A stretch of DNA of 64,000 nt. Source: a virus. This document shows positions 1,594 through 9,377 of this stretch, piece after piece. Numbering within the stretch: position 1 is the stretch's first letter; every line of letters begins with the position of its first letter. The notes under the pieces were generated by a model. The model was not told the origin of the DNA. It was given only the letters and a program-made list of their open reading frames with translations, and searched no databases. Where the stretch lies: positions 1-64,000 of IMG/VR virus record IMGVR_UViG_3300044724_004793. One strand, 5' to 3'. Made by a program: the position numbers and the translations under genes.

Positions 1594-2393
1594 TAAAGCC
1601 TATTATTATACATTATCCAAGTGGTGGATTTGGAAACTTTATCAACGTACTCCTTAGCATATGTTTTAATGCTATAGATACTCCGGATAAAGATTTTAAA
1701 TTCAGCGCAAATGGTAACAGCCACGACTTTCCAAAATCAACTTGGACTCATTATGAGGATAATATAAAACTTTTTAGAGATGATATATTGCTAGTGGACA
1801 GCGGCATTGATAAAGATTACATAGAACCCATAACTGAAAGATTTCCAAACAGTCCTATAATTAGGATGTGTATTGACGAGCAAAGTAAAAGTATTGTAAC
1901 ACAAACCTGCAAATATAAAGCACAAGGAAAACAATTTATATTTGATGGTGAGTGGTGGGAAAAAAGAGAACAGTACACGCTAATGTATCACTATGGCGAA
2001 GAAAACAACGACTACTATATTAATAACTTTAAACCGTTAGACGAGTGTACTAACATTAACATAAGTGATTTGTTTGTAAACTTTGATAAAGTGTTAGAGC
2101 AGTTGTCAACAGTAGTTGGTTCTTACGATAAAGACAAAGCATACGAGCTTCACAACGGATTCTTAGAATCAAACAACAAATATTATAAAGCCGAGGAACT
2201 AGTTAATATAGTAAAGGACGCATTAGAAACGAAAAATCATGTTGAGTTAGACGATTATAGTTTGCATGATCAAGGATACTTGCTCTTTTGGCTCGAAAGA
2301 AAGTATAATATTAAAGAAATACCTCCGTACGACTATAGAGAATGGTTCAAACACACGAAAGAAATTGAAACTTGTTTAAACTTAATACACTAA
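1590..2393 (+). CDS. Hypothetical protein, possibly sulfotransferase/P-loop-like fold
   Basis: 267-aa ORF overlapping both neighbours. N-terminal beta-strand plus YPSGGFGNF loop; fold assignment is tentative. Confidence 0.45.
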   Translation: MIKPIIIHYPSGGFGNFINVLLSICFNAIDTPDKDFKFSANGNSHDFPKSTWTHYEDNIKLFRDDILLVDSGIDKDYIEPITERFPNSPIIRMCIDEQSKSIVTQTCKYKAQGKQFIFDGEWWEKREQYTLMYHYGEENNDYYINNFKPLDECTNINISDLFVNFDKVLEQLSTVVGSYDKDKAYELHNGFLESNNKYYKAEELVNIVKDALETKNHVELDDYSLHDQGYLLFWLERKYNIKEIPPYDYREWFKHTKEIETCLNLIH

Positions 2394-4129
2394 CCGTAAA
2401 GAATTTTATGAGCGTGGGCAATCAAACTCAGGCTGTAGACTTTGACCGTAGAGACTTAACTCTGGTGCTGGGTGAAAACTTAGATCAAGGAGGTGACGAC
2501 TTAGGCGCCAGAAATGGCACGGGTAAAACCACAATCATCAACGCACTCAGTTATGCTCTCTACGGTCAAGCATTAACTAATATTAAAAAAGATAACCTAG
2601 TTAATAAGACCAACGGCAAGTCTATGATGGTTACTGTTGACTTTGAGTTACACGGCATTACGTATCGTATTGAACGTGGCCGTCGGCCCAACGTACTCAA
2701 GTTTATGGTTGGCGAAGTTGAAACTGAAGAACAACAAGGCGACAGTAGAGAAACGCAACACTATATTGACAAATTGTTGCACATGAGTCATGAGATGTTT
2801 AAGCATCTGGTTGCGCTTAACACTTATACGCAACCATTCCTTAGTTTAAGTGCAAATGATCAGCGTGATATAATTGAACAGATGCTGGGTATCACTATGT
2901 TAAGTGAAAAAGCAGATGCACTTAAAGATCTGAATAAAAAAACAAAGGACATGATTACTGAAGAAGAGTATCGTGTTAAGGCAGTTGAAGACGCAAACAA
3001 GCGAGTTGAAGAGCAGATTGACAGTCTAAAGAAACGTCAGCGTCTCTGGCATGCTAAACGTGACGAGGACGTAAAAAAACTAAAGTCTGGCATTGAGGAT
3101 CTAGCACACATTGATATTGATAGCGAGCTTGCTAATCATAAACTACTAGAAGATTTTTATGCACAAAGGAAACGGCGAGAAGAAGCAGAGCGTTGGATTG
3201 TTGGAATTGACACTGATAATACCAAGCAAGAAAAGTTAATCCTACGTCTAGATAAAGAAATTGCACTACTTGAAGAACATAAATGCAGTACCTGTGGTCA
3301 GGAAATTCACGACGGCAAGCAGGAAGAAATTTTGGCTAGTAAAGCAACTACTAGACAAGAAGCAACTATGTCTATACTTGCTAATGAAACGCAACGTGCG
3401 GATCATTTAGAAATATTAAGTGAAGGTGTGTTGGGAGTTGCTCCAAAAGTATTTTATGATACAATTGATGATGCATATAACCACCGTAGTAGTTTGGATA
3501 GTTTAGCAAAAGAGCTAGAAAATCGCAGTAATGAAGTCGATCCATACGCAGAACAAATCGTGGAGATGACACAAACTGGTGTTGAGCCTGTTGACTGGAA
3601 TACAGTTAACGAACTAGTACGTATACGCGATCACCAGGACTTCTTATTAAAATTATTAACTAATAAAGATAGTTTCATACGCAAACGTATTATTGATCAG
3701 AACTTGCAGTTCTTGAATGCTCGATTAACTCATTATCTTGACAAGATGGGATTGCCTCATTCAGTTCGTTTTATGAACGACCTAGGCGTAGAAATACAGG
3801 AACTGGGGCGGGATCTAGACTTTGACAACCTTAGTAGAGGAGAGCGTAATAGACTTATTTTAAGTTTAAGTTGGGCGTTCCGAGACGTTTGGGAAAGCCT
3901 ATATCATCCTATCAACTTGTTGTTTATTGACGAAGTTGTTGACAGTGGAATGGACGTTAGTGGAGTCGAGAGTGCACTAGCAGTACTTAAACGGATGGCA
4001 AGAGACCGCAACAAGAGTATTTGGCTTGTTAGTCACAAGGATGAGCTTACAGGCAGAGTTAACAACCTGCTTAAAGTTGTAAAAGAGAATGGCTACACCA
4101 GTTATGACACGGACGTAGAAGTTGTATAA
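2372..4129 (+). CDS. gp46: Recombination ATPase subunit, Rad50/SbcC-like (T4 gp46)
   Basis: KNFMSVGN, Walker A GARNGTGKTT, coiled coil with zinc hook CSTCGQ, signature LSRGE, Walker B LLFIDE, H-loop VSHK. Confidence 0.95.
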   Translation: MFKLNTLTVKNFMSVGNQTQAVDFDRRDLTLVLGENLDQGGDDLGARNGTGKTTIINALSYALYGQALTNIKKDNLVNKTNGKSMMVTVDFELHGITYRIERGRRPNVLKFMVGEVETEEQQGDSRETQHYIDKLLHMSHEMFKHLVALNTYTQPFLSLSANDQRDIIEQMLGITMLSEKADALKDLNKKTKDMITEEEYRVKAVEDANKRVEEQIDSLKKRQRLWHAKRDEDVKKLKSGIEDLAHIDIDSELANHKLLEDFYAQRKRREEAERWIVGIDTDNTKQEKLILRLDKEIALLEEHKCSTCGQEIHDGKQEEILASKATTRQEATMSILANETQRADHLEILSEGVLGVAPKVFYDTIDDAYNHRSSLDSLAKELENRSNEVDPYAEQIVEMTQTGVEPVDWNTVNELVRIRDHQDFLLKLLTNKDSFIRKRIIDQNLQFLNARLTHYLDKMGLPHSVRFMNDLGVEIQELGRDLDFDNLSRGERNRLILSLSWAFRDVWESLYHPINLLFIDEVVDSGMDVSGVESALAVLKRMARDRNKSIWLVSHKDELTGRVNNLLKVVKENGYTSYDTDVEVV

Positions 4130-4964
4130 AGTACTTCATTTAGAGCCAACTGACGTATGTCAAGCCAAATGTCCACTGTGTAGTAGATCTACAAATCCAC
4201 TATTTACAGACTTGCACAATCATTTAACTGTAGACCAGATACAAGCAAAGTTAAGTAGCACTGATATCCAGAGTTTGGATAAAATGTTTATGTGCGGCAA
4301 TTATGGGGATCCTGCTGCAGGTGCCAACACACTGGAAATTTATCGTTACTTTAGGAGCGTAAATCCAAACATTACATTAGGAATGAACACCAACGGTGCT
4401 ATACAGTCCACTAATTGGTGGAAAGAGCTTGCTGGTATTTTTACAATGCCTACAGACTATGTGGTTTTTAGTATAGATGGATTAGAAGACACAAATCATA
4501 TCTACAGACGTAATGTTATCTGGAAAAAATTAATTGACAACTGTACAAGTTATATCAACGCTGGGGGGGAAGCTCACTGGGACATGTTAGTTTACAAACA
4601 CAATCAGCATCAGGTTGATGAGTGTATGGAATTGGCAAAAACGCTAGGGTTTGCCTGGTTTAGAGCAAAAGTAAGTAAACGAGCCTTTATAGATGGTTTG
4701 GAATTTCCAGATGGTTATGAAAATCCTAAAATAGAACAGGGCAGTATCAACTGTATGGCTTTACAAGAATCAAGTGTGTATATAAGTGCAACTGGAGATG
4801 CACATCCTTGCTGTTGGTTAGGCAATAATTTAAATAATACATTACAAATGGCAGATGTGCAAGCAACATGGAATACTGATACACCCAATCCAACTTGCAA
4901 AAGAACATGTAGTGCAGTGGAAAATAGTTTTAAAAATCAATGGCAGCGTGAGGTAGAATTGTGA
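4122..4964 (+). CDS. Radical SAM protein with C-terminal SPASM/twitch-like Cys domain
   Basis: CQAKCPLC (CxxxCxxC), GNYGDP, TNG and FSIDG motifs; C-terminal C...G..HPCCW...CKRTC. Confidence 0.88.
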   Translation: MYKVLHLEPTDVCQAKCPLCSRSTNPLFTDLHNHLTVDQIQAKLSSTDIQSLDKMFMCGNYGDPAAGANTLEIYRYFRSVNPNITLGMNTNGAIQSTNWWKELAGIFTMPTDYVVFSIDGLEDTNHIYRRNVIWKKLIDNCTSYINAGGEAHWDMLVYKHNQHQVDECMELAKTLGFAWFRAKVSKRAFIDGLEFPDGYENPKIEQGSINCMALQESSVYISATGDAHPCCWLGNNLNNTLQMADVQATWNTDTPNPTCKRTCSAVENSFKNQWQREVEL

Positions 4965-5010
4965 ATCAGGAATATGCAACCAGTTGGTAGCTCCTGGATA
5001 TATAATAAAC

Positions 5011-5430
5011 ATGAAGTGGTTATACAAGGATCAACCAGTAGACGAATTACCAGAAGACATAGTAGGTTTTGTCTACTTGATTACTAACACTACAAATAAC
5101 AGACGATACATTGGCAAAAAACTGGCACGATTTAGGCGATCTAAACCACCCCTCAAAGGCAGAAAAAACAAACGGCGCACTACTGTGGAATCAGACTGGC
5201 GTGATTATTATGGCTCATCAGACGCACTAACGGCAGACATCGAAGCACTCGGCAAAAGCTGCTTTAAACGTGAGATACTCTACTATTGTTACAGCAAGGG
5301 AGAGTGTAGTTACATTGAAGCAAGAGAACAATTTAGGCACCGTGTTTTAGAATCAGATGAATGGTATAACGGGCATATACGTGTTCGTGTTCATCAGAGT
5401 CAAAAAATACTTACAGAATCTAACAAATAG
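5011..5430 (+). CDS. Small free-standing GIY-YIG endonuclease (Seg/EndoII-like)
   Basis: GFVYLITN...RRYIGKK, YYGSS, FKREIL, conserved Glu in YIEA and YNG. ATG 5011 is preferred over the ORF-track start at 4984. Confidence 0.88.
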   Translation: MKWLYKDQPVDELPEDIVGFVYLITNTTNNRRYIGKKLARFRRSKPPLKGRKNKRRTTVESDWRDYYGSSDALTADIEALGKSCFKREILYYCYSKGECSYIEAREQFRHRVLESDEWYNGHIRVRVHQSQKILTESNK

Positions 5431-5439
5431 GCTTACATA

Positions 5440-5690
5440 GCAACCCTGAATCAACGCCTTGAGACTGCTTCTGCGGTTGGAACTGGCGAGTTGCGGGCAA
5501 AAATTACTCTAGAAAACCCTTTAGCACTAGGAACGAGGCTGGGGATAGCGTAGAAATACGTGATATCGACGTAGGTTGGGAAAGGTCAGAGCCCATAGAG
5601 TAGCCAAAAATACCTACTTCCGGATGCTGGATAAACGACGGTAATGTCACCAGAATCGACGGAACCTTGGATTGGTTCCGTCTGACTGAA
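5440..5690 (+). ncRNA. Candidate structured non-coding RNA, unassigned family
   Basis: GC-richer non-coding stretch with many stems, two GNRA tetraloops (GAAA 5553-5556, GUAA 5641-5644) and crossing pairings. See findings. Confidence 0.6.
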
Positions 5691-5703
5691 ACACTTTGGT
5701 AAT

Positions 5704-5782
5704 ATCAAATTATAAGAGATCAAGTTATTAAGAGATCAAACACGGAACGTTAGTGAAGTGTTTGGATGAACGTAGTTCATCC
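5704..5782. repeat. Direct repeats plus two inverted repeats (origin-like)
   Basis: TAAGAGATCAA at 5713-5723 and 5729-5739; CAAACAC/GTGTTTG at 5737-5743/5758-5764; GGATGAAC-GTA-GTTCATCC at 5764-5782. Confidence 0.7.
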
Positions 5783-5789
5783 GTTTAGG

Positions 5790-5817
5790 TTGACAGAATT
5801 ATATAGTAAGTTATAAT
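5790..5817 (+). promoter_or_regulatory. Sigma70-type (early) promoter
   Basis: TTGACA-N16-TATAAT; shares GGTTGACAGAA with the promoter at 35689. Confidence 0.75.
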
Positions 5818-5865
5818 AAGTGTATTATCCAGGTGTAAATACTAAACCTAAAAAGGAATATATAT

Positions 5866-6090
5866 ATGGATGCTATAGATAAAAGGACAAAAAGCGAAGC
5901 TGAAAGTGCTTTTATTGAATTTGTTGACAAAATCCAGGACTTGGGATTCAAATTTGATTTATTTGATAAGGTGGAACTCACGTATATCAAAGGTGATGCT
6001 GCCTTAAAACCACATAGCATAGGTAATAAACTTACTTTACGTGCTGAAGAGTACGTGACAAGTGATGATAAAAACACCCAGATCACTTAG
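5866..6090 (+). CDS. Hypothetical protein (74 aa)
   Basis: AAGGA Shine-Dalgarno, lies downstream of a promoter, converges on the gp51-like ORF. Confidence 0.65.
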   Translation: MDAIDKRTKSEAESAFIEFVDKIQDLGFKFDLFDKVELTYIKGDAALKPHSIGNKLTLRAEEYVTSDDKNTQIT

Positions 6091-6299
6091 AAGAACGGCA
6101 ATCCGCTCTTTTTAGTAACTTCTAGATTATCTTTAATAATTTCTTCTATAATTGGAATATCGTTTACACCTAGATTCAGTAGCTCGCTGTAACTGAGACC
6201 GCCCCGCATGTACCAGCATGCCTCCAAGAGCCTCTTCTTAAATTTCTTCGTATCCTGATCATAACCATCCAGTAATTTCTGGATTTCGTCAGAGCTCAA
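6087..6299 (-). CDS. Small baseplate-hub assembly protein (gp51-like); probably expressed as a -1 frameshift extension of the upstream gene
   Basis: TTG start with no SD; WYMRGGLSYSELLNL motif; directly follows the gp26-like gene and lies in its -1 frame. Confidence 0.6.
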   Translation of the reverse strand: MSSDEIQKLLDGYDQDTKKFKKRLLEACWYMRGGLSYSELLNLGVNDIPIIEEIIKDNLEVTKKSGLPFF

Positions 6300-6326
6300 G
6301 GTCAGGATACGGATTCGAAAAAATTT
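6249..6326 (-). other. Putative -1 programmed ribosomal frameshift signal
   Basis: mRNA A_AAU_UUU_UUC (6326-6317), 5-nt spacer, then stem CGUAUCCUGA (6311-6302) / UCAGGAUACG (6258-6249). Confidence 0.72.
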
Positions 6327-7222
6327 GATTGGTCAAACGTAAATGGTGTTGTATAACTGTGCTGACAGTCAGGACACTGTGTGGGGATGTTTTTTTCAGG
6401 CACGCCGTCGTTGATTACTTTCTGATGCTTTTGCACAACATCGATAATTTTCCTGTCAGCACCCTCTATAAACTCATTAAGGAAAAATCTGTCAGATACC
6501 AGGGTTCCATCTGGCATTTCAATATACTCTACAGTTTCTGCCATCTGTCGGACGTTTAGATCAGTAAGTTTGGAAAAAACTTCGTTAAACTGTTTGAGTT
6601 TTTCTTCTTCAGTTAAATCAGTAGCATTTACAACTGTAAGCATGCGTTGTTGTTCAAACTGTTCCATGTTACTGCTATTAATTGCACGATATGTTGTAGG
6701 TTTAAGTTTTACTCTTAGATCTCGATATTCAGTCATATGGTCATAACCAGATATGTCTACTGTCATGTCAATAAATCTGCGTAGATCTATTTCATACTCG
6801 TTAGTTTCCTTGCATTCTGGGCACGTACTCATGTATTCCATTTGCTCGCCATAACTGGCAATACGGATACCTATGAGAATAACATCAAAGTCGCACACTG
6901 GTATTTCCCAGGCATCTTTAATATTTGGTATACAATGCTCAATAACGTCTACTACTGCCTGGCCATTTATCAGTGCATCAGGACTTTTAAGTATAAGTTC
7001 GTCTTTGGTACTCATTGCCAGTACTGGTAGTTCGCCATTAGCTGGCATATCAATGCTACCAGGTTTCCAAAATTTACCCTTGCTGGGTAAACTAAGGTAA
7101 ATCTGTGGTGTTCTCATATATCCACTTAGTGGATTACCAGATTGCTGTGGTTGCATTTGTGCTCGTTGCAGAGTCTCCTGCATAACTTTTAGTTCTTCTG
7201 GTGTGGGGGATTCTATGCTCAC
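6302..7222 (-). CDS. gp26: Baseplate hub assembly protein/chaperone (T4 gp26-like)
   Basis: LSLPSKG, MSTKDELIL and ILIGIRIASYGE motifs; two CxxC pairs (CPEC, CPDC); C-terminal NFF; GGAG SD before GTG. Confidence 0.78.
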   Translation of the reverse strand: MSIESPTPEELKVMQETLQRAQMQPQQSGNPLSGYMRTPQIYLSLPSKGKFWKPGSIDMPANGELPVLAMSTKDELILKSPDALINGQAVVDVIEHCIPNIKDAWEIPVCDFDVILIGIRIASYGEQMEYMSTCPECKETNEYEIDLRRFIDMTVDISGYDHMTEYRDLRVKLKPTTYRAINSSNMEQFEQQRMLTVVNATDLTEEEKLKQFNEVFSKLTDLNVRQMAETVEYIEMPDGTLVSDRFFLNEFIEGADRKIIDVVQKHQKVINDGVPEKNIPTQCPDCQHSYTTPFTFDQSNFFESVS

Positions 7223-7298
7223 TGTGTCATTCTCCGTGGTAAATACATTATATATACCGTAGTTGTATTTATATGCGTATATAACTAGGATTTAAAAA

Positions 7299-9377
7299 TT
7301 GGCAGTCACAGTAGATATTCCAGGAGTTGGAACAGTTGTTGCAGATAATGCTGCTCAAGATAGCACTCTTAGCAGTATTTTAGCTGCCATTAAGTCACAA
7401 TCTGGTGATGGCGGCGCCGCTGATAGTCAGGGTGTGCAAGCACTTAACTCACGCTCACGACAAGCAGGAAGCAGTATAACCAAGCTATCAGGTAGTTTTG
7501 GTGGACTAAGTGAGACTGTGGCTGCTACCGCAAGCGGAATGTCCGCGGTTGGCCGTGGCATGTCCAGCCTAATGGACTCCATGACCCGGTCTGCTAGCAG
7601 ATTTGGCAGTATCACAGGCGAAAGTGTGTCACAAACCATGGGTGAAATTAACCGGGTAGCGGGATCAATGACCCGAGTTCTTCCAGGCATGCTTGGCAAA
7701 GTTGCCAATGGACTAACAGCTGGCGTAGGACTAATAAGTGGCGCAATGGCCAAGCAGGCTGATGCATATAATACTGCTGCTCAGAGCGGTTTTAATTTTG
7801 GTTACAGCATGGATAACATGCGAGATATTTCCAATGCTGCAGGACTTAGTATGACTCAGCTTACAAAAGTAATGCAACAAAGCGCAGATTCGATGTCACT
7901 TTTTGGAGGCGGCACAAATCAGGGCGCCAGGGAATTTGCAAGGCTTAATAAGATTGTGAGGGATCAGTCAGGTCCAGTTATGTTAAGAATGGGAATAGGT
8001 TTTGAAGAGCAGGGTGTGAGAACTGCAGAAACTATTGAGCGACTTATGTTGGCTGGTATGAGTTTTGACGAAGTTGCACGAAGCGGAGATTTAATTGCCA
8101 GAGAAACATTTAAAAGAGCACATGTAGAAGGCCAATTAGCTAAAATTAATGGAACCACACTACAGCAAGAACGAGAAAAAATGAAGGCAGCCCAAAAAGA
8201 TGTTACACTCCAAGCGACTTTGTTTGGAGCGAACGATAAAGTACGTACACAAATGACATCTTTATACAAGCAATTAGAAGGACAGTTTGGACCTGGTATG
8301 GCAAAACTTGCACTGGAAATATACAAAAGTGGAGGTGCAATGTCTGAAGCAGGAGCTTTATTGACAACGCAGATGCCGGGATTAACAAATGCTTTAAAGG
8401 ATCAAGTGGGTACAATTAAACAAACAGGGGGAGAAACGAATAGAACTTTTGCAGATATGCTTGCTGGTCTTGACCCAGAAGCTTTAAGACGAGAGCAGGG
8501 TGCGATGGCAGAGCTGCAATCCACTGCTTCACTAGCAGGTGTAAATATGGGAACCTTAAGCACTGTGCTAGAACAGTCATATTTAGGATTGCAAAAAGTA
8601 GCAACACAAGTAGAATCAGGCACAATTGACCGTATAATTGCTGATCAGGAAAAAATATTTGAGAAAGCTGGTAAAGTCACAACAGCTATGGTTAATCAGC
8701 AAACAATTATGCAACAAGCGGCACGAGAACTAAGCATGGCTATGACAGATGCTATCAGCGGTCCTATAGGCTCAGGAGTTATTAAAACTAATCAATTTAT
8801 AATGGGTATGATGACAAACGCGGCGAAAGGAACGGGGGCGTTAGTTGAAAAAGTTAATGAAGTAATTAATTATATAGATGGACAAGTAACAGGTACTAGT
8901 GCCACTCCTCAATCAAGTGGTGGTCGTGGTGATGGAACCGCACAATCAAGTAATCCTATTAATTCTGGTAGTTTGTATCGCGACATGATAGATGCCATCA
9001 ACCCTGTTAATACAGGAACACTAACACTGCCAACTAGTACTGGTACACATGCAATGAGTACTGCCGCACCTGCAGCCATAACAGAAAACCAAATGTCCAA
9101 CATGCTTGCCGCCCATGCCAATGCAATTAGAGATGGCACACTAGATGGACTTGCAGATCGAATGGCTAAATTTGGTGGTGCTGGACCAGAAGATGCGGCT
9201 ATGGAACAAATACAATCAGTGCCAGTTAGTTCGTCCAATGTTGTGAGTCTATCTAGTCAGGACAGAGAACTACTAAGCCAAATTGCTGCAGGCAATAGTA
9301 TGATTGATAGAAGTGTTAATAGTGTTGGTATGCGGCAACTAGAAGCCCTTGATGAAGTTAAAATGAACACAGGTTAA
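7299..9377 (+). CDS. Probable tail tape-measure/hub protein
   Basis: 692 aa, helical, Ala/Gly/Met/Gln-rich, no Cys or Trp; divergent from the gp26-like gene and upstream of the portal. Confidence 0.6.
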   Translation: MAVTVDIPGVGTVVADNAAQDSTLSSILAAIKSQSGDGGAADSQGVQALNSRSRQAGSSITKLSGSFGGLSETVAATASGMSAVGRGMSSLMDSMTRSASRFGSITGESVSQTMGEINRVAGSMTRVLPGMLGKVANGLTAGVGLISGAMAKQADAYNTAAQSGFNFGYSMDNMRDISNAAGLSMTQLTKVMQQSADSMSLFGGGTNQGAREFARLNKIVRDQSGPVMLRMGIGFEEQGVRTAETIERLMLAGMSFDEVARSGDLIARETFKRAHVEGQLAKINGTTLQQEREKMKAAQKDVTLQATLFGANDKVRTQMTSLYKQLEGQFGPGMAKLALEIYKSGGAMSEAGALLTTQMPGLTNALKDQVGTIKQTGGETNRTFADMLAGLDPEALRREQGAMAELQSTASLAGVNMGTLSTVLEQSYLGLQKVATQVESGTIDRIIADQEKIFEKAGKVTTAMVNQQTIMQQAARELSMAMTDAISGPIGSGVIKTNQFIMGMMTNAAKGTGALVEKVNEVINYIDGQVTGTSATPQSSGGRGDGTAQSSNPINSGSLYRDMIDAINPVNTGTLTLPTSTGTHAMSTAAPAAITENQMSNMLAAHANAIRDGTLDGLADRMAKFGGAGPEDAAMEQIQSVPVSSSNVVSLSSQDRELLSQIAAGNSMIDRSVNSVGMRQLEALDEVKMNTG

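Follow-up and report, generated by a model that had tools for sequence, protein, structure and literature searches.

The stretch of DNA analysed here, called the window below, comprises positions 1 to 64,000 of the IMG/VR virus record IMGVR_UViG_3300044724_004793, a metagenomic virus contig of 110,870 bp that is estimated to be 31% complete. Its source is an uncultured giant T4-related phage, and Pfam and PHROG scans of the window identified, among other genes, a T4-type portal, a gp46-like nuclease subunit and a SegE-like nuclease. On the minus strand, at 6302..7222, lies an open reading frame (ORF) of 306 amino acids (aa), which encodes a gp26-like baseplate-hub assembly protein. Judging from the sequence, the 3' end of this gene very probably carries a programmed -1 ribosomal frameshift site, by which a single member of the gp26/gp51 family (PF12322) would give rise to both a short and a long form of a hub-assembly chaperone. 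The 306-aa ORF matches Pfam PF12322 (T4_baseplate) over residues 79-302 (E 5.1e-17, 62.7 bits, above the curated cut-off of 24.5 bits) and phrog_150, 'baseplate hub' (3.8e-19), confirming the term 'gp26-like' used in an initial annotation of this DNA. Its nearest named relatives, at ~28-32% protein identity, are found in the jumbo myophages Phosso, Atu_ph07, the 121Q/PBECO4 group, PA5oct and XacN1.

Read on the minus strand, the gene ends with CAA TCA AAT TTT TTC GAA TCC GTA TCC TGA, placing the 0-frame stop at 6304-6302 and giving the short form the C-terminus ...FDQSNFF-ESVS*. This end includes a slippery run, A_AAU_UUU_UUC (6317..6326, minus strand), made up of two overlapping heptamers, U_UUU_UUC at 6323-6317 and A_AAU_UUU at 6326-6320, both in phase with the 0 frame, just as the initial annotation had described them. 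We regard U_UUU_UUC as the conserved site, since A_AAT_TTT is found only in a subset of the homologues; for the same reason A_AAU_UUU was rejected as the main slip site. The latter is an optional second site, at which a slip would yield the identical 378-aa protein (...QSNFF-RIRILTL...). Between 6332 and 6090 the -1 frame contains no stop and reads FFRIRILTLSSDEIQK..., and the extension that it encodes (6087..6323, minus strand, with its stop at 6089-6087) consists of FF followed by 76 new residues (RIRILTLSSDEIQK...CWYMRGG...KKSGLPFF). A virtual fusion of residues 1-302 with this extension produces a long form of 378 aa, with the predicted junction ...QSNFFRIRILTLSSDEIQK, so that the product sizes given initially, 306 and about 378 aa, both hold. 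The sole start codon of the -1 ORF in the window is a TTG at 6299 that lacks a Shine-Dalgarno motif, which, like the open frame, had been correctly noted before. Pfam and PHROGs scans of this ORF alone returned no match.

Downstream of the heptamer, a 5-nt spacer, GAAUC (6312..6316, minus strand), leads into a stem-loop (6249..6311, minus strand), in which a 10-bp outer stem (6311-6302/6258-6249) encloses a 6-bp hairpin (6284-6279/6272-6267). The same stem, hairpin and spacer had been proposed at the outset, and they were recovered as the minimum-free-energy fold of the region, with an energy of -24 kcal/mol and a z of -3.93; none of 200 dinucleotide shuffles folded as well. When the 90 nt past the heptamer were folded in 73 homologues, the mean z was -2.96, with stems starting 5-7 nt downstream of the heptamer in the relatives. 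Moreover, in 63% of homologue sites an 11-nt arm located 6-16 nt past the heptamer could pair with sequence further downstream over 9 or more contiguous positions, compared to 2.8% of 7,247 control positions within these genes. Examination of covariation within the largest register group revealed compensatory, both-sided changes in 8 of 14 pairs, and the observed covariation was reached in 0 of 500 shuffles.

The comparison across relatives drew on two sets of loci: 80 IMG/VR relatives of 37-95% identity, 79 of which were analysable, and 80 further IMG/VR loci, of which 74 are split and 6 are fused in frame. T_TTT_TTC is present in phase in all 79 analysable loci of the first set, 9-24 nt ahead of the 0-frame stop, and in all 74 split loci of the second, i.e., in 153 of 153 loci having a second ORF in the -1 frame. 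In the first set, the -1 ORF extends 69-75 codons beyond the 0-frame stop; the +1 frame mostly extends 2-15 codons. Phosso, Atu_ph07, 121Q and PA5oct exhibit the same layout, with the heptamer in phase. The site reads NNT TTT TTC in each of the 74 unique homologues of the first set; among 37 other Phe-Phe pairs in the same genes, just 4 are encoded by TTT-TTC, and TTT makes up 73% and TTC 27% of the Phe codons elsewhere. The heptamer is conserved at the nucleotide level, and this conservation exceeds chance. Beyond the Phe-Phe, the 0-frame tail is variable and 1-6 codons long (G*, A*, ESVS*, AAAS*), and the -1 frame is conserved (FFR.[RTK][LI]L...W.MRG...TTKK.G.PFF). Upon alignment of the homologues, the heptamer, the -1 phase and the downstream stem were all found to be kept across relatives of 25-47% protein identity. 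This check, which the initial annotation had suggested, turned out in favour of its reading.

Some relatives encode the long form without any slip. A search of 1.84 billion representative proteins with a profile built on the -1 extension yielded 507 matches, mostly orphan ORFs of 44-100 aa, and ~20 of the best 150 matches were 319-351 aa long and consisted of a PF12322 body with the extension fused at its C-terminus, the junction reading ..FRNKIL.. with a single Phe. TTTTTTC is absent from all six in-frame fused loci of the second set, and in all five searched records with an in-frame long form, a second PF12322 paralogue without the extension lies adjacent. T4 also possesses two PF12322 genes, 26 and 51, and no slippery run: gp26 (208 aa) is a bare domain that ends in ...EFFELL* with the non-slippery codons TTC TTT, and gp51 (249 aa) is a full PF12322 domain (3.9e-52) with ~48 further C-terminal residues. 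A slippery run was found in none of the gp26 genes of seven T4-like phages (0/7). The complete genomes of Phosso, Atu_ph07, 121Q and PA5oct contain a single PF12322 match each, and the same is true of KVP40, S-PM2, P-SSM2 and HTVC008M. Taken together, the gene counts and the distribution of the heptamer indicate that one gene goes with the heptamer, and two genes go without it. As for the arrangement of the paralogues, in some two-gene phages, e.g., Cronobacter phage GAP161 (locus L097, with genes 51, 26 and 25 in that order) and loci L179 and L185-L188, the long and short copies lie in tandem on one strand, as opposed to the divergent pair of T4, suggesting more than one history of duplication or rearrangement.

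We further examined how the -1 extension relates to T4 gp51. A C-terminal profile, to which seven T4-like gp51 proteins contributed their last 62 residues, was run on the 10,783 ORFs that a six-frame translation of all retrieved loci gave. The four best matches were all -1 ORFs located behind a PF12322 gene, those of P-SSM2 (1.8e-11), S-PM2 (1.2e-9), HTVC008M (2.2e-6) and KVP40 (6.6e-4), and the jumbo-phage -1 ORFs ranked directly behind them (E 0.01-0.3). KVP40, S-PM2 and P-SSM2 carry T_TTT_TTC in phase, and HTVC008M carries T_TTT_TTT directly ahead of the stop. The term 'gp51-like' in the initial annotation was therefore right in substance, as gp51 is itself PF12322 plus an extension and the cyanophage and KVP40 -1 ORFs match it significantly; for the jumbo-phage clade the match is weak. 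When the virtual fusions were aligned to the seven gp51 proteins by hhalign, only the first zinc-ribbon region aligned (probability 29%), and this comparison was set aside. A tblastn search of the named phages with the window extension found Atu_ph07 and Phosso only. Two of the sites deserve separate mention. In Pelagibacter phage HTVC008M (L195), the site reads AGT TTT TTT TAA, with the stop as the very next codon, and this stop codon may itself act as the pause. In Prochlorococcus phage P-SSM2 (L193), a second in-phase heptamer, A_AAA_AAG, lies 48 nt ahead of the stop of the same gene, and may be there by chance.

The sequences show the signal and its conservation, the relatives fused in frame, and the pattern of one gene against two. 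From these we infer the following course of events, including that a slip takes place, how efficient it is and that the products act as chaperones. Most ribosomes would read through Phe301-Phe302 and terminate four codons on, producing the 306-aa short form. A fraction would be stalled by the stem-loop 5 nt downstream while two tRNA-Phe occupy UUU-UUC, and would then slip back by one base onto U_UUU_UUC, where both tRNAs could re-pair on UUU. These ribosomes would go on to translate 76 codons of the -1 frame, making a 378-aa long form composed of residues 1-302 and a helical C-terminal domain. The two products would be the counterparts of gp26 and gp51, the 'hub assembly chaperones' for which T4 and certain other phages have a paralogous gene pair. 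If lambda G/GT is a guide, a fixed ratio of short to long form would be needed to assemble the baseplate hub and the tape measure core, and neither form would be retained in the virion.

The arrangement could conceivably arise in other ways. If RNA polymerase, rather than the ribosome, slipped at the U6 run and added one U, a subset of the mRNA would encode the identical long form in frame. The slip site is indeed a homopolymer run, a single inserted U gives exactly NFFR..., and in HTVC008M a run of eight T lies directly ahead of the stop codon. Known bacterial sites of transcriptional slippage, however, need ~9 or more A/T, and the U run of this clade is only six long and never longer in 153 loci. 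Its codon phase is moreover invariant, where polymerase slippage needs no fixed phase, and a stem 5-7 nt downstream with compensatory changes is a hallmark of ribosomal -1 frameshifting. We therefore favour slippage by the ribosome, because slippage by the polymerase leaves the fixed phase, the six-U length and the stem unexplained, and we consider the latter improbable.

Somewhat less probable still is the view embodied in the GenBank records, according to which there are two separate genes, the small ORF being started on its own or by termination-reinitiation and giving a free gp51-like peptide of ~70 aa. The Phosso, 121Q and KVP40 records do show a separate small coding sequence (CDS) with an ATG that overlaps the stop, and an ATG occurs within 12 codons in 13% of loci. 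Among 137 unique split loci, however, 59% lack any possible start codon (ATG, GTG or TTG) within the first 12 codons of the -1 frame, and a start accompanied by a Shine-Dalgarno-like motif occurs in only 8%; the window itself offers just the TTG described above. Thus, the second ORF keeps to one frame and mostly lacks a start or Shine-Dalgarno motif of its own, the opposite of what the initial annotation had expected of independent genes, making its independent initiation unlikely. The -1 frame is also conserved as protein from the heptamer on, upstream of any start, and the extension occurs naturally fused in frame to PF12322, including in T4 gp51; separate genes would, in addition, leave the invariant heptamer unexplained. 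Chance, a sequencing error or a decaying gene might be invoked as well, given that homopolymers are prone to indel errors and that the window is a metagenomic contig. Yet the same layout recurs in 153 independent contigs and in cultivated, finished genomes, with both frames under protein-level conservation, leaving this explanation with a negligible probability.

Several points weigh against the programmed ribosomal frameshift that we favour. The compared sequences are related by descent, and their counts are not independent events. The extra U that RNA polymerase might insert would give the same protein. The 3' stem arm occupies at least four registers across the lineages, for which reason a consensus RNA structure for all homologues was dropped, and there is no single one; that the 3' partners differ by lineage looks like selection for a stem as such and not for one inherited helix. 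The covariation subset was picked by register, a bias that inflates the percentage of paired positions, not the compensatory changes. The resemblance of the window-clade extension to T4 gp51 (residues ~202-249) is moderate only, with an hhalign probability of 33-61% and a P of 4.5e-4 to 8e-5 over 31-32 columns, and BLASTP of T4 gp51 found nothing significant in the window extension (nor did it in that of KVP40). Finally, the gene order is not that of lambda, where the chaperone gene precedes the tape measure gene: here, the gene and its putative tape measure neighbour are transcribed divergently.

Structure models were used to compare the family with known tail assembly chaperones, the natural in-frame homologue L100 (350 aa) serving as a proxy for the window fusion. 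AlphaFold2 predicted the L100 long form as one compact unit (predicted local distance difference test, pLDDT, 95.5; predicted template modelling score, pTM, 0.91), in which the extension forms helices (270-345) packed on the body. The 306-aa short form of the window was modelled with a pLDDT of 89.5 and with its last four residues (ESVS) disordered. No solved relatives were found in the PDB, either by sequence profile or by Foldseek at E <= 0.001. In an unbiased alignment of the natural long-form model with 48,161 PDB chains, the top two matches, which lay over residues 9-102, were tail assembly chaperones, YqbN (3klu; Z 5.7, root-mean-square deviation 3.8, 81 aligned residues) and the HK97 chaperone (2ob9; Z 5.6, root-mean-square deviation 3.5, 78 aligned residues), at Z values that are within the range of chance arrangements. 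A structure search with the 306-aa window model returned helical-hairpin look-alikes only, without reproducing the chaperone fold match, and none of 74 members had a Phage_TAC Pfam match. The comparison proposed initially thus did place tail assembly chaperones on top, but with weak Z values and not with the window's own model. Kinship of PF12322 with these chaperones rests on a weak fold match, and is a lead, not a proof of membership.

How, then, does this system compare with those already described? For T4, Leiman et al. 2010 (PMC3004832) list gp26 as well as gp51 among the hub assembly chaperones, and report that the particle lacks gp51. Both T4 proteins belong to PF12322 and are needed for hub assembly, gp26 being a bare domain that ends at the same Phe-Phe and gp51 the domain with a C-terminal helical extension. 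They differ from the window in being two divergently transcribed paralogues without a slippery run, where the window has one gene and a proposed frameshift, and in the extension, ~48 aa in T4 gp51 and 76 aa in the window, with weak similarity between the two. KVP40 (gene 26 and KVP40.0327) and the T4-like cyanophages, with their small 'gp51' ORFs, share the window's layout and T_TTT_TTC (T_TTT_TTT in HTVC008M), but their records show two independent CDS and no frameshift. Their extension is moreover of the T4 gp51 type (E 1e-11 to 7e-4), whereas that of the window is of a diverged jumbo-phage type bearing the W.MRG motif. A GenBank note on KVP40.0327 states that it resembles the last 40 aa of T4 gp51, and the ORF is annotated as a separate CDS. 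In Acinetobacter phage vB_AbaM_Berthold (H95), the gp51 homologue is annotated as 'tape measure protein assembly chaperone', the only inspected record to name the function proposed here.

The other obvious point of reference is lambda G/GT. Works cited in the review of Atkins et al. 2016 (PMC5009743) describe lambda gpG/gpGT and a conserved -1 frameshift of tail assembly chaperone genes (Levin 1993, Xu 2004), and the review itself describes G-T frameshifting as a conserved feature of long-tailed phages 'except T4'. The window resembles lambda, at the level of signal and comparison, in that the slip would occur near the 3' end of a small assembly-chaperone gene and the products would share their N-terminal part; in both, the extension is a separate domain and the gene lies near tail, hub and tape measure genes. 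The two appear to differ in protein family, given the missing Phage_TAC match and the Z of 5.6-5.7 over ~80 residues, and in the signal, which is U_UUU_UUC with a strong stem in the window and G_GGA_AAG in lambda. They also differ in gene order: a lambda-type order would place the window gene directly upstream of the putative tape measure gene and in the same orientation, but the two are divergent, and on this count the claim of G/GT family membership fails. The equivalence with G/GT put forward in the initial annotation therefore holds for the way of working, a short and a long chaperone from one gene; as a family relationship it is a lead only. Going further, one could entertain that the gp26/gp51 family supplies T4-like and jumbo myophages with the tail assembly chaperone that has long been missing there, and that it is truly homologous to lambda G/GT, the HK97 chaperone and YqbN, with the one-gene frameshift state being ancestral and the two genes of T4 (like the tandem pairs found here) a derived duplication. 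We put this forward tentatively, as a conjecture that we are inclined to doubt.

No published report of a slip in gp26/gp51 genes was found in a full-text literature search, in keeping with the initial remark that none was known for T4-like phages, and no joined CDS was annotated among the GenBank records inspected. The roles of gp26 and gp51 in T4 hub assembly have been unclear for decades. If they are one chaperone in a short and a long form, direct tests of their function become possible, and most relatives would use a single gene and a frameshift. This would also explain T4's apparent exception to the conserved tail-chaperone frameshift (PMC5009743), and should the ancestral frameshift and homology to G/GT be true, the 'except T4' gap would close. 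The annotation of thousands of phage genomes, in which the second ORF is now called a separate hypothetical or 'gp51' gene, would be corrected, and the family would constitute a natural experiment, with some lineages obtaining the same pair of products through recoding and others through gene duplication.

Turning to the remainder of the locus, the 306-aa ORF begins with a GTG start codon (7222-7220) preceded by a probable ribosome binding site, GGAG (7235-7232), assigned from the ORF list and the spacing (together 7220..7235, minus strand). A relative of 95% identity (L013) aligns from residue 1, in agreement with the GTG start. Approximately 45 nt upstream of the GTG, at 7266..7273 on the minus strand, we read the late-promoter-like sequence TATAAATA, identical to the T4 late-promoter consensus; its position suggests that the chaperone gene is transcribed late. 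The 306-aa protein also contains two CxxC pairs (Cys134, Cys137 and Cys283, Cys286), ~150 residues apart and invariant in the jumbo-phage relatives, the second pair lying just ahead of the frameshift site. Both gave weak zinc-ribbon matches, and probably come together as a split zinc ribbon holding the body of the chaperone in one piece.

The divergent neighbour (7299..9377, plus strand) encodes a 692-aa protein rich in Ala, Gly, Ser and Met that is a possible tape measure protein. It had no Pfam or PHROG match and no similarity to T4 gp29; its language-model features were nearest to TMP_3 tape-measure clusters (score 0.93, a lead only), and in 121Q and PA5oct the homologue at this position carries the annotation of a virion structural protein. 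Of the earlier description of this gene as divergent and 'tape-measure-like', the orientation stands, and the identity comes down to the language-model resemblance. A blastn search of phages with the locus gave no relevant match, and an Rfam scan of 5300-7400 at E <= 1 found nothing meaningful, its single match being a weak one to sR17. On the other side of the -1 ORF lies the SegE-like GIY-YIG nuclease gene (4984-5430; PF19835, 1.3e-36), and ~650 bases between this gene and the end of the -1 ORF (within 4984-6086) are devoid of a convincing ORF. Beyond it, a radical SAM protein gene (4122-4964; PF04055, 2.4e-8) is located between the gene for the gp46-like, SbcC-type nuclease subunit (2372-4129) and that for the SegE-like nuclease, and is unusual company for a recombination nuclease.

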